This document shows, piece after piece, positions 482 through 44,573 of a stretch of 44,595 nt of DNA (within the stretch, counting starts at the first letter, position 1; every line of letters begins with the position of its first letter). Location of the stretch: contig JALAGF010006634.1 of the NCBI GenBank assembly GCA_030167865.1, positions 1-44,595 on the forward strand, given 5' to 3'. The notes beneath the pieces were generated by a model. The model was not told the origin of the DNA and did no database searches. It saw only the letters and a program-made list of their open reading frames with translations. The position numbers and the translations under genes are program-made. This stretch comes from Craspedostauros australis. Its lineage: Eukaryota.

Positions 482-692
482 CGCATTCCGCATCAGTGGT
501 CGTGGATGATTTCGAATGCTGCGAAAAGACCAAGCAGGGCCGGACAGTCCGTTGGCGCGGTCGAATACCACATGGTGAGACGAAACCGAATACATTGAAG
601 TTTCGCATTCCGCGGAAGTATTCGCGTGTGACTTGGAAAGTCGCAAAAAGACCGAGCAGGATCGGACAGTCCGTTGGTTCGGTTGAATACGA
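482..692. repeat. Two-copy imperfect direct repeat, 122-bp period
   Basis: CGCATTCCGC occurs at 482 and 604. AAAAGACC(A/G)AGCAGG..CGGACAGTCCGTTGG..CGGT.GAATAC occurs at about 524-568 and 646-690. Confidence 0.75.
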
Positions 693-1269
693 CCTAGTAG
701 GAATGGGCTCGGAACCACGTCGCAGTGTACAACCACACTAAATAGCGTCGCAGCGAACCCAAAACGCGACATGTTGGTCCCAAATGGCACTTTGAAAGAC
801 TTTGATAGCCCCAATAGTGTCACTCGCTGCACAATAATTGACAAGAATGGGTCTAAGTAATGCTGTTCTTGGTCGAAATCGACACCAAGGCATAAAATAG
901 TCTCAACATTACGTCAATTGGCGCAGAAAGGGGCTAACAAATGCCCAAATGGTGTTGCTCGAACCGTTCATCCTGAAACTGCCTGTTCAGAACTGCCACA
1001 ACCAAAACATCATTCCTGGCACATCCGGACGCAGGGAGCAATCCGTTCAAAACTGCAGTGTATGTACAAACAGACCAACATGTTGGGCGAATGCGCCAAA
1101 GGCGACGCAGTCGAAACACTGTTTCGGTCCGGCCAACGCAGAAAAAATGGCACAAATGAGAACATGTTCCACGATTCAACGGCGAGATGGAAAAAACGGT
1201 GCGAATGTCCGAGGGAAACAGTAACAGACGAATTTCGCACAGGACGAATAAATGTGACAAAGCGCTTCC

Positions 1270-6009: not shown

Positions 6010-7162
6010 ATGGACCCACTTTCTATTCTTTCTGAGTCGCAATTCGCAAAAAACGCCGTTTTCCCTTCCCCCCTGAGCCAAGCGATACCCATACCACCAA
6101 GGCTGAGTTCCCTTGTTCACGCGATGCGTGATTCGGTCGTGTTCGTATGTTGTCCGCACATGCGCACGCAAGTATTTTGGACCAACAAAGGCCCATCAAA
6201 CAAACAGCCGACCAGTATCTCAGTGATGTCACCCTTGCGTCCACCGAAGGAGAAAACTTAGGAACAGTAAAGAAATCCTGTGACATCTGGACAAGAACCG
6301 TTGGAAGCCATTGCCGTCAGCGATATCCGACGACCTATCGATTGGGCCAGACATGTGGACATTCAACCTCGTGGGTGGTGGCGATGTCGCGACCGACGTT
6401 GCGGACAATGTTGCGATTTTGGAGTTGCCATCGAGCCTTTGGTTGTTGTATCGACATGCGCTAGCCGTACCAAAGGGAGAGAGAGTGCTGGTGCAGTTTC
6501 GTGGTCGAGTTCCCTTTCGTTGTGTCGTCCAACCGTCGCTGTTGCCTTCGATGTGCACCCGTGCGGACGACCACGTGTGGATTCCGGCCAGGATTGCGAA
6601 GATTCGCAACGAGGACGAGATCCTGACATACTTGTGGTACCGCACGCACCATTCCCACATGTGAGAGCGCTCTCGGGTCGAGCAAGAGCGATGTTACTGC
6701 GCTGTAACAGTGACCAAGCCCATCTCAGTCCAAGTCCCCCAGAGCAGTCCCATGGTGGCGCTGTCCCGAAGAAGCGAAGATCAATCTGTTGCGCCAAGCG
6801 TTCCGCATTCCGAGGCCCACAAATGTACCATACAACTCCTCGAAGCAGTCAATGAACATCCATAAGCTGCGTGCTTCTTCGTAGAGAGATGAATGCCACT
6901 CGTCGTGAGGACTCAACTCTCTACAATAGTGTGCACCATTGCATGAGAGCACTCCACTCCACTCTTCCGCAAACTCACCATGGACATGTACATGGTCTTC
7001 TTCCGTACGAGTATTTACCTGCTTGCTATATTCACCCATCCACATTCCTTCGCGTTGATGCTGTTTTGCGCATGCCATGTGCACGAATCTTCACAGCCAA
7101 CACTCGAAGGCGTCAAGTCGTTCTGTGCGGACTGCGGCACCTGGCAATACCATCTACTCTAA
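6010..7162 (+). pseudogene. Possible decayed protein-coding gene of unknown family
   Basis: Protein-like reading from ATG 6010 (MDPLSILSESQF...) continues after a frameshift as RRKLRNSKEIL*HLDKNRWKPLPS...VWIPARIAKIRNEDEILTYLWY and reads past the TGA at 6662. Several stops and frame changes are present. Confidence 0.3.
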
Positions 7163-19557: not shown

Positions 19558-20247
19558 TCAGTTGATGCCTCCCGGGCGGAAGAAAAGACGGATCTCATCT
19601 TGCTCCTTGTAATCATGCGCCGCGCTGGTGGTGGCGTTGCCATCACCGAATGTGGGAGAGTAGCGATCGAAGTCGCGCACCGGCACATCCATCTGCCAGT
19701 CCACATCGATTTCTGTTGGTGGCGTCGCTCTGCGACCGTAAGGATCGGTTGGAACCGCCTGCTGCCTCTTGCCCTGATCGTTGCCCATCTGCCGGATGAT
19801 ATCTTCCTCTTCGCTACCGAGGGTGGTATCGTCGCGACAGACCAAGGACTCGACATTCTCAAAGACGTAATCGATGACATCGCCCCTCTGACCGATCGGC
19901 TTGATGCTCTTCTTGACAGGCGCCGGTCGCCCCAACAGCTCGCCTTGCGGATCGGGCTGCGTGTCGCGCAGGGATTCGTCGGTGACCAGCGAGTTGTCGC
20001 GGCCGATGTTGTACGGTGTGACCTGCTCGCTTTCATCCTCGACGGTGCGTTCGTCAGCGCAGATGTAGGATTCGACGTGTTCAAAGACGTAGTCGACCAC
20101 GTCTGGTTCGGTCGGTTCCTCGCGTGCGTTGCTTTGCAACGCGGTGGGTGAAGGGCAAACGAGGCCCTCCACCATGCCGAAGAAGGAATCGAGGGCATCC
20201 GGCGACTTGGTCGTCAGGTGTTTGGTCTCTGTTGTCGTGGACATCAT
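19558..20247 (-). CDS. Hypothetical protein (229 aa) with three copies of a D-x-x-D-x-x-F-x-x-V-E-x-x-x-C motif
   Basis: Likely start is MMSTTTE at 20247, after a low-complexity leader. Motifs are DALDSFFGMVEGLVC, DVVDYVFEHVESYIC and DVIDYVFENVESLVC. Codon usage is coding-like. Confidence 0.75.
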   Translation of the reverse strand: MMSTTTETKHLTTKSPDALDSFFGMVEGLVCPSPTALQSNAREEPTEPDVVDYVFEHVESYICADERTVEDESEQVTPYNIGRDNSLVTDESLRDTQPDPQGELLGRPAPVKKSIKPIGQRGDVIDYVFENVESLVCRDDTTLGSEEEDIIRQMGNDQGKRQQAVPTDPYGRRATPPTEIDVDWQMDVPVRDFDRYSPTFGDGNATTSAAHDYKEQDEIRLFFRPGGIN

Positions 20248-21117
20248 GTTGAATCGGCTGATGAGCTGGCTGTTGAATGAAGAAGTGAATGAGTGAGCGA
20301 TGGATTGATGGAAAGATTGAGGGAAAGGTCGAACGAGGGTTCGTATGAATGAGGGTCGGAATGAGTTGGTTCTTTGGTGGGAGTGGATCTGATTGTGTGG
20401 ATGTGTGTGGATGCACTCGTAAAGGGTATTGGTATTAGTGCAAGTGGGTGAGAGAAAGAGAGATGACAAGGTGTCAGGTTGCTGTTGTGGTTGCGACAAG
20501 CTTCCGGTCCAGTTCGGCTCAGCTCGTTCGGCAACGATCAGATGATGGAGGTGCAGATGAGAATGGTGAGTGATGTTGTTGTCCGTCTCTGCCTCTCTTT
20601 GTTTGTGCATCATGGTTGGGCACAAACCAACAGACATGTGTTGGAGTGAGGCGAAACGATGACCGCCATGTGGTTGCGCAAGAGCGCCCGTGCCCTCGCG
20701 CTATGTAATTCTCGCATTTGGCGGTATCAACCGTTATTTTACCCATCTCAACGTCCGAGCGTGAGCGTCCGCTTAGTGCAATTCGTGTCGTTAAATTCCA
20801 ATGTGCAGGAATTTTCAATGTCGGAGCGACGCTCTATTCTCCAAACTTCATGTCATTGTTAACGTCTCATCTCCGGCAGAGACAACAACGGATGCATATT
20901 TATTCGTGAATAAATTGCGTTCGTCCATGTTGAGTCACGTTAATAGTTGCTCGGATTGAACTAGAGCACTCTCGCTTCACAGACCTCATGGCATGTATAA
21001 TACCCCCAGTGCAACCCTCAATCCCTGGAAGCGCAGGTATGCACAATTCGAAACAACTCGATCATATCACTGTGCTCCACCATACATCAGATATTATAAC
21101 AATTGTAGCCACCCACT

Positions 21118-22959
21118 CTATGAGTGCTGAACTGTGGACCCGCTTCCCTGCTGTCCACCGCCAAATGCGATGGGAAAGTTGCCACGCACGCCGACCGGCT
21201 TCTTGGGCTTTTGTTGCAGACTATCTACGACGACAGACTCGACAATGGGCTTCACCGCCATGCCGGCCCTGCCCAGCGCCTTGTTCGACACGACCTCGGC
21301 CGCCAGCTTGCCGCTCAGCACGGCGCCTTCCATGGAACCCAGGAACTTCTGGCTCGCAAAATCGCCGGCCATGACGAAATTCTCGATGGGACTCTGCTGG
21401 CTGGGCCGAAACTTGTTGCGTCCCGGCGTCGCGGCGTAGACCGATCGTGGCACGCGCACGACGGTGGATTTGGTGATCTGCGCGCTCTCCGGTGCGTTGT
21501 CGCCAATCTCCGTGGGGAACAATCGCGACAGTTCGTTCATGGTGGCATCCACAATCTCTTCGTCGCTCGCTGCGATCCAGTTCTTGTCCGATCCGGCAAT
21601 CTCGGAGCACGGCGCGAAGACGAGCTCCAGCATGCTGTTCGTGTTGGAGGCGTACTCCTCGCAGCACACGCTCATGTCGGCGTAGACGCTGAGCAAGGGG
21701 GAGCGCGAGAAGCAGAGGCCGTCGACGCTGGAGAGCTTGCGGTCGAACCAGATCTGGATGTTAATGACGGGGATGCCCTCGAGCTCGTCGAGCTGTCGGA
21801 AGTAGGGCTTGGTGGACCATGCCTCCGGCACGAGTCGCTTGACGACGTCGACGGGCATGGCGGAGACGTAGTAATCAAAGTCATCCAGCGTGGTGCCGTC
21901 CGCGAACTCGAGGGACTTGACGGTGCTGCCGCTGTCGTCGTTGACATGAATTGCGGAAATGGGCTTGCCGGTGATGACATGACCGCCCTTGGATTGGATG
22001 TGGTCGACCATGGGCTTGCAGAGGCGCTCGGGCTGGTTGCCATCGAGGAAGGCCGTCTGGCTGCCATCAGCCTCGTTGATAAATCTGTTCATGGCGGTGA
22101 GCACCACGGTCATGCTGAGCTTGTCGGGATCGATGAAGTCCAGCGCCTTGCCCATGGCGATGAAGATCTCGTCGTTGACCCTGGACGGCATGCCGTACTT
22201 TTCCATGAACTGCAGCACCGACAGCTCGTCCTGGCCGTCGATGAAGCTCTGTCCCTCAAGCAGCATGGGCAACAGCGCCGGCACCATCTTGACCTTCTCC
22301 TCCAACGTGAGCATGTCCGTATTGGTGAGGATGGCCGACGCCATGTTAAACGGCGCCGGCACCAAGGGCGGGAATTCGAACCTGGTGAACTCGCCTGGCT
22401 TGTCGGCCATGGCGAAGGTCATCTGGTGCGACTTCCACTGCAGCCGATCCTCGATGTCCAACTCCTCGAACAGATTCATCATGTTGGGATACGCTCCGAA
22501 GAAGATGTGCAGCCCCGTCTCAACCCAATCCCCGTCGTCATCCTGCCAGGCAGAGACCTTGCCGCCCAGCACGCCACGCGCCTCAAAGACGGTTGGTTTG
22601 TGTCCTGCATCGACGAGATACTTGGCGCACGCCAAACCTGACAGGCCACCACCCAGGATGGCGACCTTCTTCTTGGCGTTGGCGGATTGAATGATGTTGC
22701 CATCCTGCATCAACTTCTCGGACAAGGCTTTGGCTTGCTTCCAGTTCTCCGTGAACTTGATGCGTCGTGGTGTGGCACCGCGGCTGGTCTTGTATTCGAC
22801 AGCGTTGTCAGATTCGGCATGCAGAGCGCTGCGGGGATTGGCATGGGGCCTGTTTGCGATGAATGCGCACGCGTGCGGCACGAAGACGAGAGCGGTCACA
22901 ATAGACACGATGCAGGTCATTGCTGAGGCCGATCGCATGGCGACTGTGGATCGCGGCAT
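21118..22959 (-). CDS. PDS: Phytoene desaturase (15-cis-phytoene desaturase), plastid-targeted
   Basis: FAD-binding VAILGGGLSGLACAKYL, GGKVSAWQDDDGDWVETGLHIFFGAYPN, AFLDGNQPERLC, FSRSPLLSVYADMS and LGSMEGAVLSGK. The signal peptide ends ACA|F, matching the diatom bipartite motif. The start is placed at MPRSTV (22959); alternatives are 22938 and 22920. Confidence 0.96.
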   Translation of the reverse strand: MPRSTVAMRSASAMTCIVSIVTALVFVPHACAFIANRPHANPRSALHAESDNAVEYKTSRGATPRRIKFTENWKQAKALSEKLMQDGNIIQSANAKKKVAILGGGLSGLACAKYLVDAGHKPTVFEARGVLGGKVSAWQDDDGDWVETGLHIFFGAYPNMMNLFEELDIEDRLQWKSHQMTFAMADKPGEFTRFEFPPLVPAPFNMASAILTNTDMLTLEEKVKMVPALLPMLLEGQSFIDGQDELSVLQFMEKYGMPSRVNDEIFIAMGKALDFIDPDKLSMTVVLTAMNRFINEADGSQTAFLDGNQPERLCKPMVDHIQSKGGHVITGKPISAIHVNDDSGSTVKSLEFADGTTLDDFDYYVSAMPVDVVKRLVPEAWSTKPYFRQLDELEGIPVINIQIWFDRKLSSVDGLCFSRSPLLSVYADMSVCCEEYASNTNSMLELVFAPCSEIAGSDKNWIAASDEEIVDATMNELSRLFPTEIGDNAPESAQITKSTVVRVPRSVYAATPGRNKFRPSQQSPIENFVMAGDFASQKFLGSMEGAVLSGKLAAEVVSNKALGRAGMAVKPIVESVVVDSLQQKPKKPVGVRGNFPIAFGGGQQGSGSTVQHS

Positions 22960-23712
22960 TTTTCTGCTGGTCGGTGATGGATATGGATGGTGTTGATGTT
23001 GCTGCTGCCACGAGTATAGTACTGTGAATCGATGGTCGAGTGTTGGATGGACAATGTGGCTGTGGATGTGAATGTGAGAGTGAGAGTGTATTGAAGAATG
23101 AGGACTCTGCTTCTGAACGACAGCAACGTGAATGTGATGTGGCGTTGCTCCTTGATCCTCTCCTATTCGTCCTGCAAATAGAGTATTGCGAGCGATACAT
23201 GAAGCCGATCGGAACAAAGGGACATCAACCAACTCATCCGGTGGACTCTTCCCAAAGAATACCATCACCAACACCCACCAACTCACCAACTCACCAAGGC
23301 AAGTCGAGAGTCACAAGAGAGAGGCCAATGATGTGGATTGCACCTTGTCATCAGCCATCAACGAATGCAGTTGATGTGTGTCTGTTGTTGTGGTGTCGGA
23401 TCCAAATGCGTCAGAATTCGTATCCACGATTGACGACAAATCGATTCCCACAAATCCGCAATCACGAGTAAGACATGCCTACGTCATCCAATACGCAAAG
23501 ATTGGAACACAAACGTTGTTCGTTGTTTGTCGCGTGACCCATCAACACAATGATCTCTGCGATGATGCTGTCGCGGTTGGTGTTGTTGTTGAAGAGGCTC
23601 TGGGACTCCACTGGGCACTTTGTTCATTGATCGACAGTCGTCACAACAACGACAGATGCACACACACACACACTGCATTGGCACTCTATCAGTATTGAAT
23701 TGACTTGCAAAG
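22960..23712. promoter_or_regulatory. Divergent (putative bidirectional) promoter region between PDS and the INO1-like gene
   Basis: The two start codons are head-to-head about 750 bp apart. No specific cis-elements were identified. Confidence 0.4.
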
Positions 23713-25140
23713 ATGGAAGCACCGAAGAAGGTCGGAATCCTGACAGTCGGCATTGGCGGAAACAATGGCGTGACGATGATCGCCGGCATCCTTGCCAACC
23801 AGAAGAAGTTGGAGTGGGAGACATCGTCGGCGGGACGCGTCAGCGCTCCCAACTGGAATGGTTGCATCACGCAGCTGGAGCCACGCGGTGTGCCAGGATG
23901 CGAGGGCGTGGGCTTCAAGGGCCGCTACCCCCTTGCGGATGCTGCCACGGCCGCCTTTGGCGGATGGGACATTCGGCCCACGAAGTTGGGTGACTCCCTT
24001 TATGACTCTCGTGTCCTCGACTACGACCTCGTGCGGCAGGTGCGAGACGAGATGAATGAGATGGCCATCCTGCCGGGCGTCTACGATGCCAGCTTCCTGG
24101 GCGAGAGCCAGCATCCCACGGCCACCAACATCGTCACGGACGCATCGACGTTCCTGGAGAAGGTGGAGCATCTGCGCAAGGACATTCGCCAGTTCATCGC
24201 GGACAACAGCATCGACGGCCATACCACCGTCATATGGTCCGCCAGCGTGGAACGTCCCAGCGAGGCTCAGTTCGCCTCGGCCGATGCTCTGCTGCAAGCC
24301 ATCCTCGACAACAGCACCGACATGGACATCTCGCCGTCCATCCTGTACGCCGTTGCGGCCGCGCTGGAGGGATGCTCCTTCGTCAACGGCGGTTCGCAGA
24401 ACACCATGTCCGCTTCCATGATGCAGCTGTACGAGGCGTCGTACCGATCGGGTGCCTCCGCGGTCCTGGCCAAGTACGCAACCGTCTCGACCAAACCGGC
24501 CTACTGCCTCGGCACGGATTTCAAGGCCGGCCAGACCAAGTTCAAGACGGCCGCCGTCGAGTACATCCGCGCCTTGGGTCTCACGCCGCGCGTTATCGCC
24601 TCCTCCAACCACCTCGGCAACAACGACATGCTCAACCTCACGAGCAAGAAGACCGTGCAAGCCAAGATGCGCGTCAAGAGCAACATCTTCGGTCCGTGGC
24701 AAGAGGACCAGCTCGATCACCAAGTCCGAGTCATGTACACGCCCTTCATGCTCGACGAAAAGCGCGACGTCGTTGAGTACACGAGTCTGGGATTCCTGCA
24801 TTGCCCCCACACCATGCTGACTTACACGCGCTGCATGGACAGCGTTCTGTGCGTGCCGCTCATGATCGATGCGGCCGTGTGGTGCGATTTGTTTGCGCGC
24901 CACGACAAGGATTCGGCATTGGTGGCGCGTGCCACGGCCTACCTCTTCAAGGTGCCCGAAGGTGGAGCGCAGGGTGTCGATCCGGGATTCCAGCGGCAGA
25001 TGGCGGCGTTGGAAGATGCTTTGCGTACGACGGTCGGTGGCGGCGACGCGGATGCAGCGGTGTTGGCGGAGTTGCTGCAGAAGGGCGTCGCGGCGGGCAT
25101 CATCGATCAAGCGCAGGCTGATAAGCTCAAGGCGCTGTAG
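23713..25140 (+). CDS. INO1: Myo-inositol-1-phosphate synthase (inositol-3-phosphate synthase)-like protein, divergent, 475 aa
   Basis: [62 protein letters not shown] and YLFKVP correspond in order to the conserved MIPS blocks. Confidence 0.88.
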
Positions 25141-25434
25141 ATCAGGTCGTTGCCGCATCGTGGTGGCGACGCTGCATGGTGCGCACACTCACTCGTGCGT
25201 TAAGGCAAGCACGGCGGGCACAGACGAGTACTCCCTACAAATAGAGAGAATAGTCGTGAAACATCGGTGCGATACTCAGGATCAATAACAGATGATGTTA
25301 GTTCGATGTTAGATAATCATGGTCATCATGTCAATTGGACTGTCCGTGCTGCCTCCAGAATACTACATACGAGTGTATGATAATGTTTGCTGCCCTATAC
25401 TCTATGCAGTCGTGCCAATATGTAGTGCTCGTGT

Positions 25435-26794
25435 TTATTTCCTCTTCTTCTTCTTGGACTTGGTGGTGGGCGCGACCTCACCGTAGACGTTGTCGACCTT
25501 GTTGCCGGTCTTCATGTCGACGCAGATCATGGCGGGCAATCCCTGGCAGCAGACGGTGCAGCAATCGCATCGGACCTCCGGCTTGTGGCCGTAGCAGTCG
25601 GCGGCCAGGACATCCAGCTTTCTGTCGCAGATCTCCTGGGGCATTGTGCCCGTCAGGTTGTTGTCGTGCAAATCGAGCACCTCTGCAGATGTAGTTGCGT
25701 TTCGTTGCATTGCATGGCGCAGCCATTTGGTTGAATCCGGATTGGCATGGAGCAGGAGAGGATTCGGATTCGAGCAGTGGGAAAGGGGGGCAAGAAGAAT
25801 GCGGAGATGACGTGAGCATTTGAATTGCCATAGCCAATGCAGTAGAGCAACTTGAATCCCCGACAGATTCCCATCTCCAAAGGTTTCATTCGAGTGGTCG
25901 GCATGCTGCGTGCTGCAAACTGTATCTGTCATCTGCCCATCATGATGTCCATCACAAATACTATATGACAATCAACCAATTCGGCGATGAATCAATGAAT
26001 GAATCATGACAAAGAAGCCCAACCAGATGGAACATACTCAATTTGGGCAACCGCGCCAACTCCTTGGGAATGCGACCTTCGAACATGTTGGCGTAAAGAT
26101 CGATGACCTCGAGCTTCTTGAGGCTGGCCAGTTCGCGTGGAATGGTGCCGCCCATGTAGTTGCCAAAGAGATGGATCTCCCGCAGCTTCGTCATGTGCGC
26201 GATCTCCTTGTGCAAGGCGCCGAACATGCCGTTCATGTGCAGACGCAAGTACTCGAGCTTGTTGATGCTGGCAAAGAGCTTGTGCGGGATGACGCCCTGC
26301 AGGTCGTTGCCGTGCATGTCGAGGTCCTTGAGGGCTGTCAGCATGCCGAGCTCGCGCGGCAGGAGGCCGTCGACCTTCATGTATCCCAGATCCAGCTCGA
26401 CGACCGTCTTGAGGGCGTTGCACTTGACGCCGAACCACTTGCACTCGTGGCTGGCAGTCATCCATCCGGAGTTGTAGTCCCAGTTGATGCCCTTCGTGGC
26501 GAAGTAGACGACGGCCAGGGCGAATCGCTGCGGGTTCCATCCCTTGTTCTCGCGCAGCATCCAGCAGGCGGCCTCGTGCTGCGGCGAGGTGGACAGCTTG
26601 AGGGAGGCCGTGCCCACCTGGCCGACCAAGGCCTTCAGCACCTTCTCGTGCTTGCGCTCGATCACCGGCTGCCCGCTGCACAGATTCTGGTAGTTCTGGT
26701 AGATCATCTTGTTGCTGGCGGCCGCTGCTGGCTGGGCCATCAGGGCCAGCAGCGTCATCGCGACCATCAGGCAGGCCTTCATTGTTCCTGTCAT
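25435..26794 (-). CDS. Secreted leucine-rich-repeat protein (diatom LRR type), 2 exons, about 334 aa
   Basis: Signal peptide MKACLMVAMTLLALMAQPAAA. The LRR N-cap reads QRFALAVVYFATKG..W...HECKWFGVKC, followed by plant-type LxxLDLxxNxLxGxIP repeats. Exon 1 is 26794-26038, a phase-1 intron spans 26037-25683 (GTATGT...TGCAG), and exon 2 is 25682-25435 with the C-cap LAADC...CDCCTVCC. Confidence 0.9.
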
Positions 26795-29208
26795 TCTTCC
26801 AATGCGGCTGCTTCTGCGGTGCTCACAATCTCAAGGTAGGTGGTCTACTGGCAGTTTAACTAACTGAGTGGTGCCGCGAGGGAGCGTCTTCCTTTCGTGT
26901 GGAACAATAGCAGCCCCGACAACGTTTTCAGGAGTTGATGTCAATCTCAACGGCGTCAGCGCTTGGGCTGGTTGATTGATGGGTGGGCTGAATGGATCGG
27001 CATGGGGCTGGCGGAAACAGCGATGTGTGATGGCCCTCATCCTTTTGCGCGCATTTTCTGTTGGAGTTTCGGCGTGTTGATGGAATCACGTCATGATTTG
27101 TTTCCAGGTGGCAAACGATGATTCTCGCGATGCGTGCGCATTCCAGACAAAACAAATGTTGTTTTGTTTCCGATCCGATGGATCGATCATCCGACTAGAC
27201 TTTGAGAGTAGAGTAGAGCAGAGCATCTTGTCGTATCCAACGGCGAACTCTTCGCAGGGATACGCGAACTACAAAACACGACCACCGCAGGTACTTGTAA
27301 TGCGCAAAGACCCACAGTTGGTGCTCGGGTTGGGCTCCTGGTGTCTTGTTCTTACCGCCCACTTTTTACTTTGTGCTTGTCGCAAACGGCGCAACACCAG
27401 AGAGTCGGCGACCTGCTGGTGGTTCGGTTGCAGAACATTCTCCGTATCCACCCACAATCGAATGGCTGATGTGGATTCGAATGTCCTGAGGGAGTCTTGT
27501 TGATACGGATACACAGGCCGAGGGAGCGGGGGAGATATGGTGAATGGAAACTGGTGATCTGGGCGGAGAATCCAAGTCGGGCCCAACGCATTACAGGAAG
27601 GCACTGGGGCATAGCTTTTGCTGTTCCCATCATCGACATTGACACGAACATGTCTTGGATGTTGCTAGAGCGGAATGGTGGTAAAGCGCAGGCAGGACAC
27701 AGTTGGGCAGTTCGAGCATCCCATTGGATTCTTTGGCCGTGAAAGGACATCTTGAGCAACAACAACAAACCAGCCTCTTGGCCGTCGACTTGGAGACGTG
27801 CGGACCTTTCTTCTCCATGTCTTTGCTGTGATGTTGTGATGTTGTGGTGCCAGTTTTCTGTTGCCCATCTCCCTCCTGCTCCTGCAAGGAAGTGCATGGG
27901 GGGTGCCGTATGTTTGATCGGCAACGCAACCGCACTCGTAGGTACAATGGGCAGTTTCCATGGTGCCTCCTCAGCTAGCCAGCTTGTACTCTCTCGCGAG
28001 TATTTGGCTCGCTGGTATCCGCACAGAGCGTCGGGACTGAAAGATTCGCAAGCCACATCATCTTTGGTTGGACACGATGGTTTGCACAAAAGCCGACCAG
28101 TACTTCACCCATCATCACCCCGCCAATGAGATGGTCGGAAGGGAAAGTGAAGCTGTGGAGCAAGACCAAACTGGTTTTGAGGACCTGCACACTGTCGCAG
28201 ATGTTCTTCGTCCCGGCATGAATGAATGATGACGTTGCCATCCGCTGTCAAGAGTAACAAGGCAGCTTGTGCCACCAACTGCCTGGGTCAAGGTCCAAAG
28301 AACCGCAAAGTCGGCAACAACATCTACGGTCGGCTCGCACATTGACCTGCTCCACGAGTGGACGAGTGGACGAGTCGACGAGTCGATGAGAAGTGAGGAA
28401 GTGTACGATGATCGATGATGGGCAGTGCAAGGCTTCTACCCGCATCATAGCATAGCGCACATCACTATTGAACAGCAGACACGTGGTCAATCGCGTTGGT
28501 TGGCTGAGGAACCGAGTTGCCGGCGGATGAATGGATGGATGAATGGATGAATGGATCGCTCCATCGCGCCGACAACCTGCAAAAGAGCGAGCACATAAAA
28601 CTACTGCGAGTACGAGAATGCTTTTGGTTGAACCGTGCATGTCTTGTCACAAACCTCGCCTCCACGCCCATACATCAAAGGTTCCAATGACACGTATCAA
28701 GGCAGGAGCAAAATCAGGAGTTTCAACTAATCATGTGTTAGTGAGCACCATGCTCGCACACCTTCCTTGGTGCTGCGACTCGACACACACGCAAAGAATG
28801 CTTGAGTTGCTCTGTGTGTGGCAACGGGTTGGAATTTATTGAGTTTGAAGTTTGAGACTGTTGGAATAGATGAGGTATTATAGAATGCATTACGGCAACC
28901 ACAACTGCAACATCATGCACGTTGTACGTGCGCACGTTAATGGGCATGCGAGTCTGGATACACTGGTGGTACTGATGCTTCTGCGTCCGACTCGGCGGTA
29001 TCGCAATGATGTCGGTTTTGCTGACACTGTTGCCGCCGCTACCGTTGTTGAATGAAAATTGACGTCGATGACGATGAAAATGAAGATGCAAATGAGAAAG
29101 GATGGCGCGGATTGCGATCATCGAGAAGGCAACAAATAGTCGCGGCGCGGTGTTGCATTTGTGCCGCGTCCAGGTTGAATCGAACGACGTCGAAGCGCGC
29201 AGCACTTC

Positions 29209-30387
29209 CTATGCCGCACCTGCGTGCCTCCTCGATGGGTCCAGCAGCTTCCTTATCGCTTCAATGACCGATCGATGCATCACCGGGCTATCGCTGTTGC
29301 TAATGTCGGTGAAGGGGTCTCCACGCGTGTCTTGACGTGCTCCAAAACCATATCCCGCGTCGTCGCCGTCTTCTGCGCTCTCGCTCACGCCTGAAGATGG
29401 ATGAAGGTTTGCGGTGTGGCTATAGCTGTGATTCACATCGGTGTTGCGCGACGATGTGTCTGGTGTGGTGGGTTCTCCGGCGGCATTCAAGTCCGGATCA
29501 TCCGCGTAGTTGTAGGTGGTGTAGGTGAATTGGAAGCTCCACGGCAGGGAGATCATCTGCGGCGGTGGCATTCCATTGAGATGCAAGAGCACGAGATTTA
29601 CCGCTTGGTACACGCAGTGCTCCATGATGGAATCGACGACGACGACTGCCCGGTGCTGCAGGATCGCCATGGCATACTCCAACGACGCTCGCGCACGACC
29701 CCATTGCCTGGCCGAGAGGAAGATGAGGCCAACGTCGTACCATGTCATCGCCAACGCTGTCGGAGATAGCGTGCCGGGATCGTTGAGAAGCACCTGCAAG
29801 AAGAGCTGCCCTGCCAAATCCTGCCGTCCCCGCAGCAGATGGACCTGCCCCAGCCGATGCTTCGCCTGGGCCAGCAATGTGTGGAACGGATTCGGGTCCT
29901 TGCTGCCATTCTCATCCGTCATGGTCGACGCAGCAAGCGCGGCGTCAAAGTCGTTTGCGTCGGAGCACAGCGCCCAGTTCTCCAGCAACGAGCATGCCTG
30001 GATGAGTGCGACCTCTGCAACGGCGGGGTCTGTGGATACAGTGCCAACGTGCAGAAGCTTCTTTGCCACCTGGAGCTGCTCTTCGATGAGCTCTGTCGTC
30101 ACCACTGCCTGCTGTATCGATTCGAGCGACATCGACAGTGTGTGCGGAGTGCTCGAGACATGCAACTGTGTGGACGGCAATGTCGATTGCTGCTGCTGCT
30201 GCAGCTGTTGTGGATAACGATGACGGAAGCCCTGGTGCTGGATTTGATGGAGATGGTTGCCCCAGTGTTGTTGTTGTTGCTGCTGCTGCTGCATACTGAG
30301 ATTCATCTGGTCATTCGATGGAGTGGCGACGACGCTTTGTATGATCATCATCATCATCTGCGACGGTGGGGTGATGGCCGAGTGCAT
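29209..30387 (-). CDS. TPR-like helical repeat protein with a poly-Q N-terminus, 392 aa
   Basis: TPR-like segments AQAKHRLGQVHLLRGRQDLAGQLFLQVL and AMTWYDVGLIFLSARQWGRARASLEYAM. The protein ends in HAGAA. Confidence 0.7.
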   Translation of the reverse strand: MHSAITPPSQMMMMIIQSVVATPSNDQMNLSMQQQQQQQQHWGNHLHQIQHQGFRHRYPQQLQQQQQSTLPSTQLHVSSTPHTLSMSLESIQQAVVTTELIEEQLQVAKKLLHVGTVSTDPAVAEVALIQACSLLENWALCSDANDFDAALAASTMTDENGSKDPNPFHTLLAQAKHRLGQVHLLRGRQDLAGQLFLQVLLNDPGTLSPTALAMTWYDVGLIFLSARQWGRARASLEYAMAILQHRAVVVVDSIMEHCVYQAVNLVLLHLNGMPPPQMISLPWSFQFTYTTYNYADDPDLNAAGEPTTPDTSSRNTDVNHSYSHTANLHPSSGVSESAEDGDDAGYGFGARQDTRGDPFTDISNSDSPVMHRSVIEAIRKLLDPSRRHAGAA

Positions 30388-33583: not shown

Positions 33584-34615
33584 ATGACGAGCAGCTCCAT
33601 TTCGATGCAGAGATGCCTCTCGGTCCTCTGTGTGGTGGTTCTCGTGGGAGGAGCATCCGCGTTCCAGGGTGCGATCGGCTCCACCGCCTTCCGCAGGTCG
33701 CCCTCGAGCACAGCAAGACCAGCGGCGGTTGGTGTGGACAGCGATGGCGATCACTTCCAAGCTGAAAACACGGACAAGTCGGTGGCGACGTCAGCAATCT
33801 CGCGACGATCCTCGCTCGGCCTTCTTGCTTGCGGATTGCTCGCATCATCCACATTGGCGCCGTCCATCGCCAACGCCGACGCATCGACCGCATCGCAAGT
33901 CACGGACAAGATCTACCTCGACGTGAAGGGCATCCCGCAGTACGCCGCCGACGGCACGCAGCTTCCGCCATCCAGCGCCACGCAGCGCATCGTCATTGGG
34001 CTGTTCGGTGAGCAGGCACCAGACTCCACCAACAAGCTGAAGCAGCTCGTCTCGGGCAATGGATTGCCGGCCGAATGCAAGCCGCGCGAGGAGCGCACGC
34101 TGCAGAGAGAACAGCTCGAGGCCAACAAGGTCTACAACTCCTGCGTGGAGGGTCAGGACAAGGGCGTCACGTACGATTACGCGCAGGTGTGGCGCATCCT
34201 CGCCAACGAGCGCATCGACGTGGGCGCCGTGGCGGGTCGGTTCGTGGCGCGCGAGAGCCCGTTTTGGTCGGAGCGCAGCGCGACGTCGTTGCCGCATGAT
34301 CGCGCTGGGCTCGTGTCGGTCAAGCGCGGCACCGACAGCGGATTCGGCTTCACCATTCTGCCGTCGGCCAACAAGGATCTGGATGGCGACTTCATCGTCG
34401 TGGGACAGGTGATCGAGGGCATGGACATCGTGCAGCAGATCAACGCGATGCCCGTCGTCAGGTCGTCCAATGTCAGCTACATGGCGCTGTCGGGCGGGCC
34501 CAAGAACAAGTCGGCGCCGACCAGGAGCTGCAGGTACGGGTCGTCAGATCTTTATTGCAACGAGAACAAGCCATTGCAGAAGCTCACCATCCTGAGAACG
34601 GGGGTGTTGTCGTGA
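33584..34615 (+). CDS. Cyclophilin-type peptidyl-prolyl isomerase-like protein, thylakoid lumen targeted (CYP26-2/CYP28-like), 343 aa
   Basis: The signal peptide ends ASA|F, followed by a twin-arginine SRRS, a hydrophobic stretch and an ANA cleavage site. Cyclophilin motifs are VTDKIYLDV, RIVIGLFG, HDRAGLVS, GFGFTI and LDGDFIVVGQVIEGMDIV. Confidence 0.88.
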   Translation: MTSSSISMQRCLSVLCVVVLVGGASAFQGAIGSTAFRRSPSSTARPAAVGVDSDGDHFQAENTDKSVATSAISRRSSLGLLACGLLASSTLAPSIANADASTASQVTDKIYLDVKGIPQYAADGTQLPPSSATQRIVIGLFGEQAPDSTNKLKQLVSGNGLPAECKPREERTLQREQLEANKVYNSCVEGQDKGVTYDYAQVWRILANERIDVGAVAGRFVARESPFWSERSATSLPHDRAGLVSVKRGTDSGFGFTILPSANKDLDGDFIVVGQVIEGMDIVQQINAMPVVRSSNVSYMALSGGPKNKSAPTRSCRYGSSDLYCNENKPLQKLTILRTGVLS

Positions 34616-36111: not shown

Positions 36112-36615
36112 TTAGCATTGGAGGACGGAAGCGGCGCCGCCGGCTTCCAAGAAGCGTCCCTGCACCCGGTCGCATCTGACGTTGCGGTCAGCGAATTCCT
36201 CACAGCCCAGGACGTTGCAGTAGGTGTTGCAAAGGATCTCCTCTTGCTTTGTGTTGGTCGCGTCCGAACAGACAAAGTCCAGCTCCTCGTAGATGATGTT
36301 GCCATCCCCGTCGGTCTTGCGTATTCTCGGGCCGCGCTCTCCGAGGAAGTTGCGTCCGCGTCCCAGGGGCGCGTCCGTCGTGATCTCCAGCGATCGGCTG
36401 CCTCTCATGTTGCCGTTGCTGCTGACGACGGCGCTGCCCATGCCGTTGTTGTCGACACCTCCAGCACCGAAACTGAAGAAGCTGGGAGGTGCGAGCCTCT
36501 GGCGAAGGTTGGATCGGGAGGCACCAGCGTCGATCTGGTTCTCGGACAGGACGGTCATGGCCATGCTGGCGAGCACAGCCACTGCGAGCGTGATCTTGGT
36601 GGTGAAGCGTGCCAT
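36112..36615 (-). CDS. Small secreted protein with a C-terminal six-cysteine domain, 167 aa
   Basis: Signal peptide MARFTTKITLAVAVLASMAMTVLS, an Arg-rich pro-region with an R-x-L site (RSL), and a C-x12-C-x3-C-x4-C-x9-C-x18-C domain. The leader is CAA-rich and codons are GC3-biased. Confidence 0.8.
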   Translation of the reverse strand: MARFTTKITLAVAVLASMAMTVLSENQIDAGASRSNLRQRLAPPSFFSFGAGGVDNNGMGSAVVSSNGNMRGSRSLEITTDAPLGRGRNFLGERGPRIRKTDGDGNIIYEELDFVCSDATNTKQEEILCNTYCNVLGCEEFADRNVRCDRVQGRFLEAGGAASVLQC

Positions 36616-38542
36616 GGTTGATGATGTTGATGTTGTTGTTGTTGTTGCTTCAATTGATCTGTGCTGTTGCTGTTGCTGTTACTGGTACTGGTACTGGCGT
36701 TTGTGTCCCTGGCGATAAGATGCTTTTGGAATGCAGAGCAAACGGAGCTGGTCAAGCAGAAGTGAATGCGAGGCGAAGACGCTCGAAGACGCTGGGAGAA
36801 ATGGAAATCGAAGCGCGAGAGGCCAACGAGGAGACTGGTGAAGTGAACTTTGTGAGATCAGTCGCACCCGACAACACCAGCCAACAAATTTTGCCGCCGA
36901 AATTGTTGCCGTTGGCCCCACTCACGCGATTGTTCGCACAAGTCGGGGGATTCTGTTCTTTGCACCAACACGTCGCTCGTTTGCTGGTGCTTGTTGCCGC
37001 CGCCTGCCGCTATCCTGGTATTTATTGGCTGCACCCGTGCGGATCTGGTGGCTTTGGTGCATTCCACACGTTTTCGCGCACCAGCCAAGAGCCCACACGG
37101 GAGAATCTGCCCCTGGGGTCACAGTCACGCGAGACCATGGCTTCCTTCAAGGCGACAATCGCAACCTTCGGTACTCAGTTTCATACAAATCGACACAGTG
37201 AGACATCACCGTGCTTGTACCCGTACAAGTACACGCTATGGCAGCTTAAATCATTCTTGGACATCGCCCAGGGAACTTCCAACCTTTCATATTCTTGCGT
37301 ACAATGACTCATCGCAACGAAATAAAAACCATCATCACCCAAGACTCGCGTCGCATCTGCTCTGCGCATCATAGTGCCGGATGAGGCGAACGTCGTTTAA
37401 TCTGGTGCACGCCCGAATCAGATCCACGTTGGATCACTTCTCGCTTTCACCTGCCAGTTGATATCTTGTTGCGACATTGGAAACATGTGTAAACGTTTGA
37501 AACATTGGATACGATGACCGGATCGTTTTTGACTGAAAATATATATTCCAACGTAGCTTCCAAAAGACGCTAATGGTGCTCTTTTATCGAACAGAATGAT
37601 CACAGTATGTCCGTTATTGATAATATTATCGAACGATTGGTCTGTACTTTTTGTCCGCATTGGTGTCGCATGTATGTCTGTGTTGTGTCTTTTCTGTCAC
37701 GCACCGCAGCCGGGCGATCTGTGGAAATGGACTCAATGGACTACTAGCACTCACGTTTCCGAACGGCGCTGTCTGCCAAAGGAGAGTAGAAAGTGAACGA
37801 GCCGCGTGCTACTCCCCATGCCATGCGCATGGCACAACTCCGTGCGAGTGGGAACACTGAAATGGCTGGCGACTAGTTCTACGTATGCTATTTCCATGCT
37901 TTCATCATGCAAAACACTCGTCTGCTTCGTCCTCTCTCAACACGCTATCGATTTGGATGCTGCAGCGACTTAGGCACCTTCCTTCTTGCGCAGGTACTGC
38001 GGTTGTGGCTTCTCATAACGTTCTGCAATCCTCCACTCCACTCCACTCTACTCTGCTCTACTCTACTCTAACTGAGATGCGATAGAGACTGCTGAGCTCG
38101 AGGAAGTCGACAATTGCAGCACTTGCAGCTGTTTCTACCCGCAGGTCACCAACAGTCTACCGATCCCGACACGATATTGCCAGTTGAGGTGGAACAAATA
38201 TAATATTATAGTTAGACTTGCGGATTGGATCATGTAATACGAGAATGGTGGTGGTGGAAAATAGTACATGTAATGCCATGTAATAACATACCATAATAGT
38301 GCTAGTAGTGTTATTATGTGATGTTTTACTCTTATAATGGTCGCGACTTCGTGCTGCTCATGGATATGGGACTCCAGAGGTAAAGCATGGTAGAAGCCAT
38401 ATCCGTTGCTCCAAAGAGATCACGTACCGTGAAGATACGAGTGGAGTAGCCGTCTGTGTTATACTCAATTCTGCCGGCGCCGCGTCTTTTCGTTCCTGTG
38501 CTCTCCTCTTCTTGTTGCTAGTCGGCGTTCGCTCTTCGTTCT

Positions 38543-38857
38543 TTATGGAGTGGTGTCGTAGCAAGCTGGAAGTTCACGCGCTGGATCCTCGGCATTTCGG
38601 AAGTGTCGTTCGAGACGGGTGCAGCGGCGGCGCCTGTGGCGCTCGCGACGTCCACTGGACGGTTCGGCGCCAACGAACTGTGGGCAATCCAACCTGTTGC
38701 AGAGGAGGTGGCATCCTCGGATATCGCGTCTGCTCTCGAACACGGCGGTGCAGTCAAAGTTATCAGGCTCCGACGTGGCAGTCACCATGTTGGTGGTGTA
38801 CGACATGGCCACAAGGGCGACGACGAGCATGAAGAAGGTGTTGGTGAGCTTGTTCAT
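38543..38857 (-). CDS. Small secreted six-cysteine protein, 104 aa, probable paralog of 36112-36615
   Basis: Signal peptide MNKLTNTFFMLVVALVAMSYTTNMVTA and a C-x12-C-x3-C-x4-C-x20-C-x19-C pattern. The start context is AAAACAATG. Confidence 0.78.
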   Translation of the reverse strand: MNKLTNTFFMLVVALVAMSYTTNMVTATSEPDNFDCTAVFESRRDIRGCHLLCNRLDCPQFVGAEPSSGRRERHRRRRCTRLERHFRNAEDPARELPACYDTTP

Positions 38858-39962
38858 TGTTTTTGTTGTTGGTGGGGCTTGGATCCGTGTGGTGAGTTGT
38901 GGTTGCTTGTGGAGTGGCGTTTGTTCGGACGATGCGATTATGAGATGATGTATTGGTAAACAGGAGATGGATGATGCAAGAAATTCAGCGAGATCTCCTG
39001 TGGAAACAAGGGCGTCACCAACAACAGCACCACCACCAGCAGCAGCAGCATGACCAGTGTCAACAGTATCAGGTTCGACCTAAGAGCGCGTGGAGACAAA
39101 GTGGCCGCCAAATCGATCGATCAGTTGCCGTGCTTTTGCTTTGCTCTGTGCGACACCAAAAGGCGTTGGTGAAGCCCTCGCTACCTTGCTGCGTCGTGAC
39201 GGATGCTCTGTTCTGTCAAGAGAATAAATAACCACAATGACCCTTTCACCAGTTACGTGAAAGACGTGAATCTCTGGAGCCGGACCATGTGCCGTCTGGA
39301 TGCTCCGTCAAGGATGATTGCGAGAGGCATCCAAGAATGACATTGTACATCCTTTTGACATCCTTATCATGGACGCGTCACGCACCATACTGGCAGAGTT
39401 ATATGTATAGTACGCGTACGTGTATGTACGTGTACGTAGGTGTCGATCGTCGGTATGGTATTATCCCAATCTTCGGTTTCGCCAGGCAACCTCCCTCTCA
39501 GATGCGACAGAAGCGACGTTACGAGATCTCATGTGTCCCAACCAGTCATCAAGGAGACATCGCCGCCGTGGATGTGTGAGTGAAATACTCAAGTGAGAGA
39601 GAACAGGGGAGAATAAACTTCGAAATACTCGACGCTCAGAGTACAATACGACTACTCGTCGAATCAACGACCTCCGCACCCCAGCAGGGAGGCGCGGTAA
39701 TGCCATAGATCAAAATATAAGAACGCGAAGGAAAATAAGGAACGAAAACGCAAGGAAATTGTCGTGTCCCAAATCATGTTTTATTTTACAAGCTGAAAGT
39801 AGGTGGAATCGCAGATTGTATTGTTTTCACAACAGAATATCGTTGTTTCCAGATCATTTCTATACGACGATCTGCTCAAAACAAGTGGGTTGACTTCTAC
39901 TGTAGATGAGTGTGTGGGTGTGGCTTGGTTTGATGACTATTATGGTTATGATATGGTAATGA

Positions 39963-42078
39963 TTACTCCTCTGCAGCATTGGACTGATCAGGTGAAGACT
40001 CACCAGATGAAGAGCCGTCTTCGGTCACCCCCAATTGCATCAATGCATCGCCTTCCTCCTCACCAATTGCATGCATGCAATGCTGCTCGTCTCGCAGGCA
40101 TTCTGGAAGGGGAGCATCACTCCATTCGCCACAGAGAAGATGTTGCACACCCTCCTCCAAACGAGGCTAGGCTGCCTCCTGTGCTGCTGCCTCTTGTGCT
40201 GCTGCTTCTGTTGTTGCCCTCTTGCCAGCAGCCTCTTCTGCTGCCTCTGCCCGTACTGCGATTGCCAGAGCTCGGACAGCGAAGGCTCTGGCCCTTGCTG
40301 CTGCTGTTGCCTGCGGGGTGTGGGAAGGTGGGGCGGGAGGCTTGTGGTACTCCACTACGCCGCCATGGAGGCCTGGAGGGGCTGGCGGGGACTTGGTGGC
40401 AGAGCGGCCGGCCGCCATCGCGATGCCATTGGCAATCGCGGTATCCACAGCATGCTTGGTTGGTGGTGGAGGTGGAGGTGGTGGTTCAGCGTGTGGGATG
40501 GCTTCGGTGGTTTTTGTGGCCACCTTCTTGCTCTTCTTCTTCTTCTTCTTCTTCTTCTTCTTCTGGTGTTTGGCCTTGCGAGCGCTTTTCTCGCTTGTCT
40601 TACCAGATGCACTGAAGCGGCTGCTGGTGGCGCTGATGCTTTTTCCCGAGCAGCTCGCCCCGTCGCGATGAGCCTCAGGGAAACACTCGCCAAACACGCC
40701 ACGCTGTTGGGAGAAGAAGTCAGCAAAGCAGTGGGAATCGCGTGGGTGAGTGCGCACATCGAGTCATTGCAGATCGTGAAATTCAGTCATCGTGTTCTTG
40801 CTTACCTCAACTCTTCCTGTCCTTTCATACGTAGATGGCGCATGGCATGTTGCGGTTCCAATGCTGGAGTCATCGCAACGGGAGGGCACACATGTTTTGC
40901 GCGTGTTGAGGTCAAGCCGGGATTGGGGCGTAGTCGCCCCAACCAGCGACAAGCCAGCGATGACAGTGCGCTTATGTGTAGAACGAGCTTGTGGAACAAA
41001 AGAAACGATGGGATGAGAACTGTTCTGTTCCACAACGCGCACGATTAGAACAGGCGCCCTTACCACCCCTTGTTTGTCGTTTGTCTGAACCTCAAGTTCC
41101 AAGTAGTTGATGCCGTTGAGAACACCATCTGTCGCGCGTTCCCATCGATTTGTCACAGCAAACGGCAAATTAACGACCTGAGTTCGCACCGGTGCTCCGT
41201 CGCGCTGTTTCATGCGAGACAATGACTTCATGGTAGCATCCGCACGTGCCTTCTCGTCGATGAAAGGCGACACCCACTGTCCGTTGGCAAGTGTGAAGTC
41301 ATCGCGCAAATGGTCATGCAGAAGTTCCATGTTCGCAAGAGCAGCGTTTTGGGTCACTTCAAGCACAACAGACATGCCGCCAGGCGCGACATGAACACGA
41401 AGGTCTTTGTGGCAAGTGCCACCGGTGAGTTCAAACGCAAGATCAATGACGCGTTCACCATTGTTGTTGCGGTAGAAAGTGCGAGTGACTGGAAGTTCGT
41501 GTTTGTTGTTGGCGTCGAGCCAATTCATGACATCGGCGTCAGTTGTGGCGACTGGTGGTGAAGGAGTCATCTTGGTCGTGGCTGGTGGTGGGTGGTGTGG
41601 AAGGGTGATGGTGGTGGTTGTTTGTTTTGGCGGTGGTGGTGATGGCTTTGTTGCGTTGTTGTTGTCTACCTCGGTTAGGTCGATGTCAGTTCGGATCATT
41701 CGAGAAGCTTCTCGAATCGTTTTTGCGTTCGCAGCAAGCTCAGAAACGGTCGGAGATTCGTTGGGATCTTTCCTGACTGAAACAATCCAATCACGAGTCA
41801 CAAATTATGAGTCACAAATTATGAGTCACGCATACAGTAGTCAAGCAAGTCATGTTTGTCTGCATCGATTCAAGGTACTTACTCTGTTCCTGGCGGACCT
41901 TGGCACGAAGATTCGACAGATTCCGAGGGAATTCGCTCCAGATGAACAGCCGTGCTGTTTCGGACCTCTCCCACACCTCTTTTGCACTCCACTCGGGTTT
42001 GATGGTTTCACTCCGGATTTGGTTTTTGAGCTCTTGCACTTGGGCGCTGCTATACACCCAACGTTTGGGTTTGGCCAT
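39963..42078 (-). CDS. Putative transposon accessory protein, 3 exons; 567 aa to the first stop, or about 635 aa if the TAG at 40169-40167 is a nonsense mutation
   Basis: Exon 1 is 42078-41883 (MAKPKRWVYSSAQVQEL...W...W...FPRNLSNLR). Intron 1 is 41882-41777 (GTAAGT...TTTCAG, phase 1). Exon 2 is 41776-40806. Intron 2 is 40805-40704 (GTAAGC...GCTGAC...CAACAG, phase 0). Exon 3 starts at 40703 and contains poly-K and poly-P. All junctions keep the frame, and the frame continues to 39963 after one TAG. Confidence 0.7.
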
Positions 42079-43563: not shown

Positions 43564-44573
43564 ATGGAACTGGAGGACAGGCACGCAGGTGAATTCGCCG
43601 TGGAAGGCTTTGCGCTCATGCGACGCGAACTGGATTGTCATGATGCCAACGTGCTCAACGATACACAGTTGCGAGAGTTTCGCGGGATGTTTGGCACTGA
43701 CCCATACATCACTCACCTCCTCTGGGAAGACCTGATTGGCACAGGTCTTCTCCCTTTCGATGCGAAGCCGAAGCACCTCCTTTGGATGTGCGCGTTCCTC
43801 CGAATGTATTTGGCGGAGACAGTGGTGGCGCGGATGATGGACACCGACGCGAAAACTTTCCGCAAGTGGGCGTGGGCCATGGCCCGAGCTGTGGCAGAGT
43901 TGCGCCACGACATTGTAAGTACAGCACATGAGAACCCCAAAAAATGCGAGCTCTCTTTTTTTCGCCTACCACGACTCACTCACAATTTCCATTCGTGACT
44001 GCTCGTATCCATCTTGCTTGCCTACAGATCGACCTAGACAATCGCTTCATTGATGCAGACAGAGATGGAAGTGCTTTCTTAACTGTAGATGGCACGGACT
44101 TTCGCACTAACGACCCAAAACCATTCAACAGAGTGTGGTACTCGCACAAGTTCAAAGCTGCTGGTGTGAGGTATGAAGTTGCTGTTTCCATCAGTAGAGG
44201 AGACATTGTTTGGGTGAACGGCCCCTTTCCGTGTGGATACATGAACGACCTGGCCATCTTCCGCTCTGAGCTTAAACAAGCAATACGGGCAGACGAGGTT
44301 GTGATTGCTGACAACGGCTACAGAGGAGATGACAAAGTGTTTCCTCCCACGTACAAAGCGGATGGCATTCTTCGTGCTCGCCACGAAACGATTAACGGCA
44401 GATTGAAGCAATGGGGCTGTCTGGGACAAAAGTGGCGTCACCATGTGGACAAGCATCACACAGTGTTCCATGCAGTGGTGGTCATCACCCAGATCGAACT
44501 CGGTAATGGCTATCCAGCGTTCGACGCCGACAAGGCGCTGGCCACAGCCCGACAGCGAATGGGTCACGACTAG
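43564..44573 (+). CDS. PIF/Harbinger (DDE_Tnp_4-like) transposase, 2 exons, 298 aa, apparently intact
   Basis: Exon 1 is 43564-43914 (HLLWMCAFLRMY...KTFRKW). A phase-0 intron spans 43915-44027 (GTAAGT...CTACAG). Exon 2 is 44028-44573 with VDGTD, YSHK, IADNGY and RARHETI. Confidence 0.93.

Follow-up and report, generated by a model that had tools for sequence, protein, structure and literature searches.

The water-borne pheromones of Euplotes are small exported proteins, made as pre-pro-precursors, that fold into a helical bundle held by three disulfides and diverge from one another around a fixed cysteine (Cys) scaffold. Other disulfide-rich families are recognized by their Cys frameworks, with an adjacent Cys-Cys pair and a connecting peptide with basic sites on both sides in insulin and relaxin, and a C-x3-C in a helix and a C-x-C in a strand in the cysteine-stabilised alpha-beta peptides, which are usually cationic. 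In diatoms, biosilica proteins carry an RXL domain of ~30 amino acids that, according to two reports, directly follows the signal peptide, ends in R-x-L (PMC5525289) and is removed by an unknown protease (PMC5525289, PMC9650480). A preprint describes CaTrailin3 of Craspedostauros australis as a 95-kDa protein with eleven tandem repeats, each with six conserved Cys, a repeat also present in centric diatoms and fungi (bioRxiv 10.1101/2023.03.06.531300). Here we report two genes, designated A and B, in a 44,595-nucleotide stretch of diatom-like DNA (contig JALAGF010006634.1, positions 1 to 44,595; the window) that encode small proteins with a common six-Cys domain. With one further protein, P0003, they very probably form a genuine family of genes for exported helical proteins rich in disulfides, and the pair constitutes a sequence family that is new, although its kind is familiar.

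An earlier reading of the letters alone (the sequence-only reading) had reported two co-oriented genes 1.9 kb apart and quoted peptide strings from both. Co-orientation and distance are as it had them (both genes lie on the minus strand, 1,927 bp from the A start codon to the B stop codon), the strings are exact, and the six-Cys framework is present in both proteins and nowhere else in the six frames. The Cys are at residues 116, 129, 133, 138, 148 and 167 of A and 36, 49, 53, 58, 79 and 99 of B. Across all six frames of the window, the pattern F-x-C-x12-C-x3-C-N-x-L-x-C-x2-F matches only at A and B, and C-x3-C-N-x-L-x-C, which occurs twice, is present in none of 50 mononucleotide shuffles (mean 0.0, maximum 0). 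R-C-x-R-x4-F is weaker by itself, with three occurrences versus 0.64 expected and a shuffle maximum of 4; the third match is in an unrelated frame at 6262-6288. A three-domain hidden Markov model (HMM), run against the 1,003 stop-to-stop frames of at least 25 amino acids, returns A and B with expectation values (E) of 9e-33 and 9e-34, respectively, and no third copy or pseudogene was found among these frames, the next best match having E 0.14. Positions conserved beyond the six Cys are a Phe two residues before Cys1, the C-N-x-L-x-C element, an Arg four residues before Cys5 and a Phe six residues after Cys5. Overall identity is low, as had also been claimed; the aligned domains are 30% identical and a direct BLASTP comparison of the two proteins gives a marginal match (28% identity over 32 amino acids, E 0.005). 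A DNA repeat search of the A locus against the B locus found nothing beyond short chance or microsatellite-like matches and, with no DNA-level repeat joining the two, the duplication is therefore old. The sequence comparisons support A and B being genuine paralogues of one six-Cys family, and their best explanation appears to be that A and B are old tandem paralogues in a lineage-restricted diatom family.

Codon usage was scored with the six Pfam-supported genes of the window as reference. Among the 106 open reading frames (ORFs) of at least 100 amino acids, A (0.35 bits per codon) ranks seventh, right behind the six training genes, and has a third-position G+C content (GC3) of 0.79, within the 0.69-0.85 spanned by those genes; B ranks 12th (0.087 bits per codon, GC3 0.70). 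For A and for B, the proposed frame scores highest among its own six frames, the frame is intact, and the first ATG past the upstream stop opens a signal-peptide-like N-terminus. A and B are both absent from the public protein collections that were searched, as would be expected of chance ORFs or of pseudogenes without a product, but intact frames, signal-peptide-like starts, codon usage that is best in the proposed frame, and the retention of six Cys and several other positions in two diverged copies and in the transcribed P0003 make such an origin extremely improbable. A trinucleotide (CAA/CAG/CAC-type) microsatellite-like run at 36616-36700 lies immediately upstream of the A start codon, and a similar run, in the opposite orientation, is located at 38990-39060, ~150-200 bp upstream of B. 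Comparison of the upstream regions of A and B revealed no promoter element common to both.

P0003 was identified by an exhaustive search, with no length limit, of 1,835,955,588 representative proteins with a profile of the A and B domains, which gave three matches at E<=0.001, of which P0003 is the one true relative. It is listed in UniRef (A0A7R9WW08) as an 'uncharacterized protein' from Craspedostauros australis, which is a raphid pennate in the diatom order Mastogloiales, with MMETSP as source. As MMETSP is a transcriptome project, P0003 is transcribed. The protein has 121 amino acids, scores 36.3 bits (E 5e-4) and retains C-N-x-L-x-C, C-x-K-x4-F and all six Cys, with x11 rather than x12 between Cys1 and Cys2, and so provides the further homologue with a conserved Cys framework that the sequence-only reading had called for. 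Its Leu-Pro-x-Cys ending resembles that of B. By BLASTP, P0003 matches A with E 9e-11 (31% identity over 114 amino acids, extending into the A pro-region) and B with E 9e-8, and the homology of A and B is secured through this link. The other two matches, P0001 (960 amino acids, 12 stretches, 68 bits) and P0002 (186 amino acids, 3 stretches, 37.5 bits), are tandem-repeat proteins without the six-Cys framework that match the profile only in part, at positions 5-35 and 35-60, respectively, their scores piling up over the repeats, and both were dropped. Word-indexed searches yielded nothing at E<=0.1, either for A alone (279 candidates, length window 91-293 amino acids) or for B alone (1 candidate, 57-182 amino acids). 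With a profile of A, B and P0003, such a search brought back only P0003 among 206 candidates, a result that is circular as evidence. Among 185,579 genomes of bacteria and archaea, eight pattern matches were obtained, none confirmed by tblastn.

The sequence-only reading had described the family as unrecognised, and the database comparisons agree. None of the 24,736 Pfam-A models matches any of the three members at E<=10, and profiles built from two and from three sequences found none of the 177,635 distinct PDB sequences at E<=10. The structure prediction and fold search that it had proposed gave a helical model for B and no PDB fold at E<=0.001 for either protein. For the 77-residue mature part of B, AlphaFold2 predicts helices at residues 16-28, 32-35 and 43-62 (predicted local distance difference test, pLDDT, 72.3; predicted template modelling score, pTM, 0.54). 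For the A domain, modelled from a three-sequence alignment, helices are predicted at domain residues 23-35 and 51-58 at low confidence (pLDDT 51.7). Foldseek returned no PDB match for the A model and, for the B model, itself of middling confidence, 31 at E<=10 of which the best has E 2.8 and a probability of 0.21. These include a vanadium-nitrogenase chain, C5a and a vicilin leader peptide, which were rejected as generic helical matches (E>=2.8). The six-Cys domain matches no catalogued family and is, on the models, probably mostly helical; given their low-to-middling confidence, it may nevertheless have a fold relationship to solved structures. Among the papers listed by literature searches on small secreted cysteine-rich diatom proteins, which covered work outside subscription journals, none describes such a family.

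Several described families resemble A and B in general design. The arthropod eclosion hormones (PF04736) are likewise secreted proteins of similar size with six Cys and three disulfides, and an eclosion-hormone cluster is the top ESM Atlas neighbour of B. Its score (0.77) is, however, under the lead threshold at a level where shuffled proteins reach 0.8 one-third of the time, and A, B and P0003 have no PF04736 match at E<=10; membership was rejected and the Atlas match treated as a chance neighbour. The Atlas provided no usable match for A. Oomycete PcF/SCR-type proteins, elicitins and fungal small secreted Cys-rich proteins are of the same general kind, with a signal peptide, ~50-170 amino acids, an even number of Cys, hardly any conserved sequence apart from these Cys and lineage-specific distributions, but have no Pfam match to A, B or P0003, and the organism here is photosynthetic and free-living rather than a pathogen, to judge from the phytoene-desaturase-like gene and the plastid signals of ASAF type in the window. 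The CaTrailin3 repeat is reported to be likewise an uncatalogued diatom six-Cys domain and comes from the same species as P0003. In contrast, A, B and P0003 are small single-domain proteins.

Both A and B plausibly begin with a signal peptide, judging from a hydrophobic core, a basic n-region and small residues at -3/-1. The Kyte-Doolittle 9-residue maximum is at residues 8-16 in both proteins (2.8 in A, 3.28 in B), and each has several -3/-1 small-residue sites. A K/HDEL-type C-terminus is an ER (endoplasmic reticulum)-retention signal; the C-terminal residues are VLQC in A and DTTP in B, neither of this type. One of the candidate cleavage sites in B, AMS/Y, would leave an aromatic residue at +1, which can support diatom plastid import (ASAFind rule), and the proteins could then be kept in the plastid or, otherwise, in the ER, the periplastidial space or the endomembrane lumen. 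We consider this very unlikely, as Phe is at +1 in neither A nor B, the B sequence past the putative site is short and acidic and not transit-peptide-like, there is no ER-retention signal at either C-terminus, and the six conserved Cys are better suited to the oxidising secretory route.

The pro-region of A aligns from M59 on with the N-terminal part of P0003 and, in both proteins, a basic segment precedes an acidic domain. For P0003, residues 1-44 have an isoelectric point (pI) of 10.8 and a net charge of +8.5, and the domain has a pI of 4.4 and a charge of -8.1. In B, the basic insertion is internal and its flanks are acidic (pI 4.65 and 5.56). This charge pairing, basic segment and acidic Cys domain, is therefore conserved whereas its layout, in A and P0003 versus B, is not, and it is the most distinctive concrete feature of the six-Cys family. 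In mammalian defensins, an anionic propiece is combined with a cationic peptide, a similar arrangement of charge with the signs inverted.

The R-x-L in the A pro-region had been taken by the sequence-only reading as a processing site of the type known from silaffins. This claim is not supported. At least one R-x-L is present in 51% of 10,000 composition-preserving shuffles of the pro-region, a frequency that puts R74-S75-L76 at chance level (the RQRL at residues 38-41 does not qualify); R-x-L also occurs inside the Cys domains (residue 154 in A, residue 94 in B), with none before the domain in B, and there is none in P0003 even though P0003 aligns with the A pro-region. In the silaffins, cingulins and silicanin-1, as presumably in A, the signal peptide precedes an N-terminal segment that can be removed, and A too has an R-x-L, but A was not accepted as an RXL-domain protein as its chance-level R-x-L, absent from P0003, is 52 residues past the putative cleavage site. 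Unlike the silaffins, A is Gly/Arg/Ser/Asn-rich rather than Lys/Ser-rich. On sequence, RIRK at residues 97-100 is a more plausible processing site than R-x-L, and P0003 has KRK at residues 31-33, at a comparable position upstream of the domain.

A part in the extracellular matrix, in an adhesive or in biosilica (mucilage, trails or frustule), with silaffin-like processing at R-x-L and basic segments that contact silica or acidic polysaccharide, would be in keeping with the origin of the sole known relative, P0003, from a benthic, adhesive, gliding diatom. The accounts of uncatalogued six-Cys repeats in CaTrailin3 of Craspedostauros australis (bioRxiv 10.1101/2023.03.06.531300), and of RXL domains after the signal peptide as typical of biosilica proteins (PMC5525289, PMC9650480), here set beside the one R-x-L of A, point the same way. 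Such a role is nevertheless distinctly unlikely: the R-x-L is at chance level in the 10,000 shuffles and absent from P0003, each protein has one small domain and lacks regions rich in Pro/Thr/Ser or Lys/Ser, and no multi-repeat diatom or fungal Cys-repeat protein emerged from the exhaustive profile search. It is likewise unlikely that the six-Cys domain is an enzyme or a wall component.

The polybasic sequence of B, RRERHRRRR, occupies residues 70-78 and directly abuts Cys5 (C79). It had been regarded as a loop between Cys4 and Cys5, but it extends a conserved element: all three sequences are basic ahead of Cys5 and share an invariant Arg at the fourth residue upstream of it, and B expands that region. 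In the AlphaFold model, moreover, the last helix begins with the polybasic stretch (block pLDDT ~80). In the three-sequence alignment, A and P0003 have no polybasic site at the position of the B insertion. B may be cut at this stretch to give a two-chain peptide, both pieces of which would be acidic, and this would not be a family-wide feature. The location of the stretch between Cys4 and Cys5 recalls the connecting peptide of insulin and relaxin, the hypothetical chains being acidic. Membership in that family was rejected; none of A, B and P0003 has an adjacent Cys-Cys pair or a Pfam match, and the basic cluster is in B only, and there only on the Cys5 side.

Small size, six Cys, putative export, low domain identity between the paralogues (30%) and the poly-Arg stretch of B would all be consistent with a function in defence or allelopathy, with A and B as exported disulfide-rich antimicrobial, anti-grazer or anti-competitor peptides and their divergence reflecting an arms race. 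Typical antimicrobial peptides are cationic, however, whereas the A and P0003 domains are strongly acidic (pI 4.1 and 4.4, respectively). Pfam, moreover, yields no toxin or defensin model at E<=10, and the sequences contain no C-x-C and so lack the cysteine-stabilised alpha-beta signature. A defence role is, on this balance, unlikely. Membership among the alpha-beta defensins and scorpion-toxin-like peptides was rejected on similar grounds: C-x3-C is present, but C-x-C is found in no member, the A and P0003 domains are acidic and no strands are predicted.

A more complete reading, in which an exported, helical domain with three disulfides is freed of its pro-segment and functions as a diffusible extracellular ligand, is tentative and, in our estimate, falls somewhat short of an even chance. 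A and B would enter the ER through their N-terminal signal peptides and then be exported, the functional unit being the C-terminal module of ~60-77 residues, mostly alpha-helical as predicted, which three disulfides between the six invariant Cys would lock. In A and P0003, the strongly basic Gly/Arg/Lys-rich pro-segment may mask or chaperone the acidic domain within the secretory pathway until a kexin/furin-type convertase removes it at the basic cluster, RIRK100 in A. B has no pro-segment, and would instead carry its basic stretch as the insertion just before Cys5. Outside the cell, the compact domain would then serve as a diffusible ligand that signals between cells or between cell and environment. 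For this possible mode of action, the Euplotes pheromones are the nearest analogue, with the differences that A and B have no Pfam model at E<=10, another Cys spacing, a longer domain (~60-77 amino acids) and an origin in an unrelated lineage, and that their helical fold is a prediction. The suggestion can be extended, as a quite improbable speculation, to diffusible signals of raphid pennates (e.g. mate- or kin-recognition pheromones) made as charge-masked precursors, in which paralogue divergence on a three-disulfide scaffold would provide specificity and the mask of B would be internal, perhaps excised to leave two chains.

Several observations weigh against the extracellular ligand interpretation. 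Nothing singles out signalling among the possible extracellular roles, which also include defence and adhesion. The deposited P0003 has no signal peptide, its Met1 aligning with Met59 of A; from this alignment, P0003 is most likely a 5′-incomplete A-type precursor. A, B and any protein at least 50% identical to them are absent from a collection of 15 billion proteins, which means that the genes lack annotation or that the collection does not include their genome, and leaves A and B without independent gene-model support. The model of A is of low confidence (pLDDT 51.7), and that of B was built on a three-sequence alignment. The family has three members, and its restriction to raphid pennates may stem from a weak two-sequence profile and sparse sampling.

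Table. Features of genes A and B and of the remainder of the window (aa, amino acids; CDS, coding sequence).
Feature	Position	Strand	Description
Gene A	36112..36615	-	Single-exon CDS, 167 aa pre-pro-protein; stop codon 36112-36114; from ORF and codon usage
A residues 1-24, putative signal peptide	36544..36615	-	n-region R3/K7; hydrophobic core ~8-23; candidate cleavage SMA/M or VLS/E
A residues 25-100, pro-region	36316..36543	-	Basic, Gly/Arg/Ser/Asn-rich; pI 11.6, net +4.8
A R74-S75-L76	36388-36396	-	Sole R-x-L in pro-region
A R97-I-R-K100, basic cluster closing pro-region	36316-36327	-	15 residues before Cys1
A residues 101-167, six-Cys domain	36115..36315	-	Acidic, pI 4.1, net -8.6; Cys6 is the last residue; from motif, alignments and charge
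Gene B	38543..38857	-	Single-exon CDS; pre-protein of 104 aa, no N-terminal pro-region; stop codon 38543-38545
B residues 1-27, putative signal peptide	38777..38857	-	K3; hydrophobic core 8-18; candidate cleavage AMS/Y after 19 or VTA/T after 27
B residues 28-104, six-Cys domain	38546..38776	-	From motif and alignment; AlphaFold pLDDT 72.3, pTM 0.54
B residues 62-78, insertion	38624..38674	-	11 residues relative to A, 6 relative to P0003; from alignment gaps; dibasic and R-x-[KR]-[KR] sites
Helicase-associated (HA, PF03457) protein	9098-11668	-	Two C-terminal HA domains, long low-complexity N-terminal region
Helicase-associated (HA, PF03457) paralogue	14584-16551	-	Two C-terminal HA domains, long low-complexity N-terminal region
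ORF without Pfam match	19558-20637	-	359 aa, codon score 0.16, moderately gene-like
Phytoene-desaturase-like amine oxidase	21118-23265	-	HACAF after internal Met ~100 residues into long ORF
Myo-inositol-1-phosphate synthase	23713-25140	+	
ORF without Pfam match	29209-30387	-	392 aa, codon score 0.22, moderately gene-like
Cyclophilin-type isomerase	33584-34615	+	Signal peptide ending GGASAF
ORF without Pfam match	40764-41699	-	311 aa, codon score -0.10
DDE_Tnp_4 transposase	43944-44573	+	

The remainder of the window is listed with A and B in the table. The window has diatom hallmarks and represents nuclear DNA from a photosynthetic stramenopile. A-x-A-F is the diatom-type plastid cleavage motif (ASAFind literature). 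The GGASAF of the cyclophilin and the HACAF of the oxidase look like parts of diatom bipartite plastid presequences, whereas A and B have no such junction; the long oxidase ORF probably begins too far upstream. The N-terminal regions of the two HA paralogues differ, being Gln/Ala-rich in one and Asn/Met/Gly-rich in the other. A leucine-rich-repeat (LRR) protein and DDE_Tnp_4 transposases are also encoded in the window. An ORF at 3562-4599 (+) reads across a 51-N assembly gap and contains two near-identical segments of ~160 amino acids, starting MGCAPGTTTMASVDG and differing at at least one P/L position, which suggests a tandemly duplicated or mis-assembled transposon-like gene. The open-ended ORF at 2-772 (-), with a repetitive His/Ser/Thr-rich C-terminal part of HISTSAH-like units, probably results from translation of simple repeat DNA at the edge of the window. 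An antisense ORF at 23689-25158 (-) mirrors the inositol-phosphate synthase gene, and the LRR protein is likewise mirrored (26006-26839 (+) and 25961-26794 (-)). These antisense ORFs score poorly on codons (-0.07 and -0.085, respectively), and such long antisense ORFs are not genes, being a side effect of the high GC3 (0.7-0.85).

Peptide and protein signalling in diatoms is a nearly unexplored field. Eukaryotic genomes commonly contain orphan families of small secreted Cys-rich proteins and, if it has no special role, the family to which A, B and P0003 belong would be one more lineage-specific orphan family of this type. If, however, it is truly a compact exported scaffold limited to raphid pennates, an ecologically dominant group, it could open an approach to communication between cells, to life in biofilms or to defence in these diatoms.

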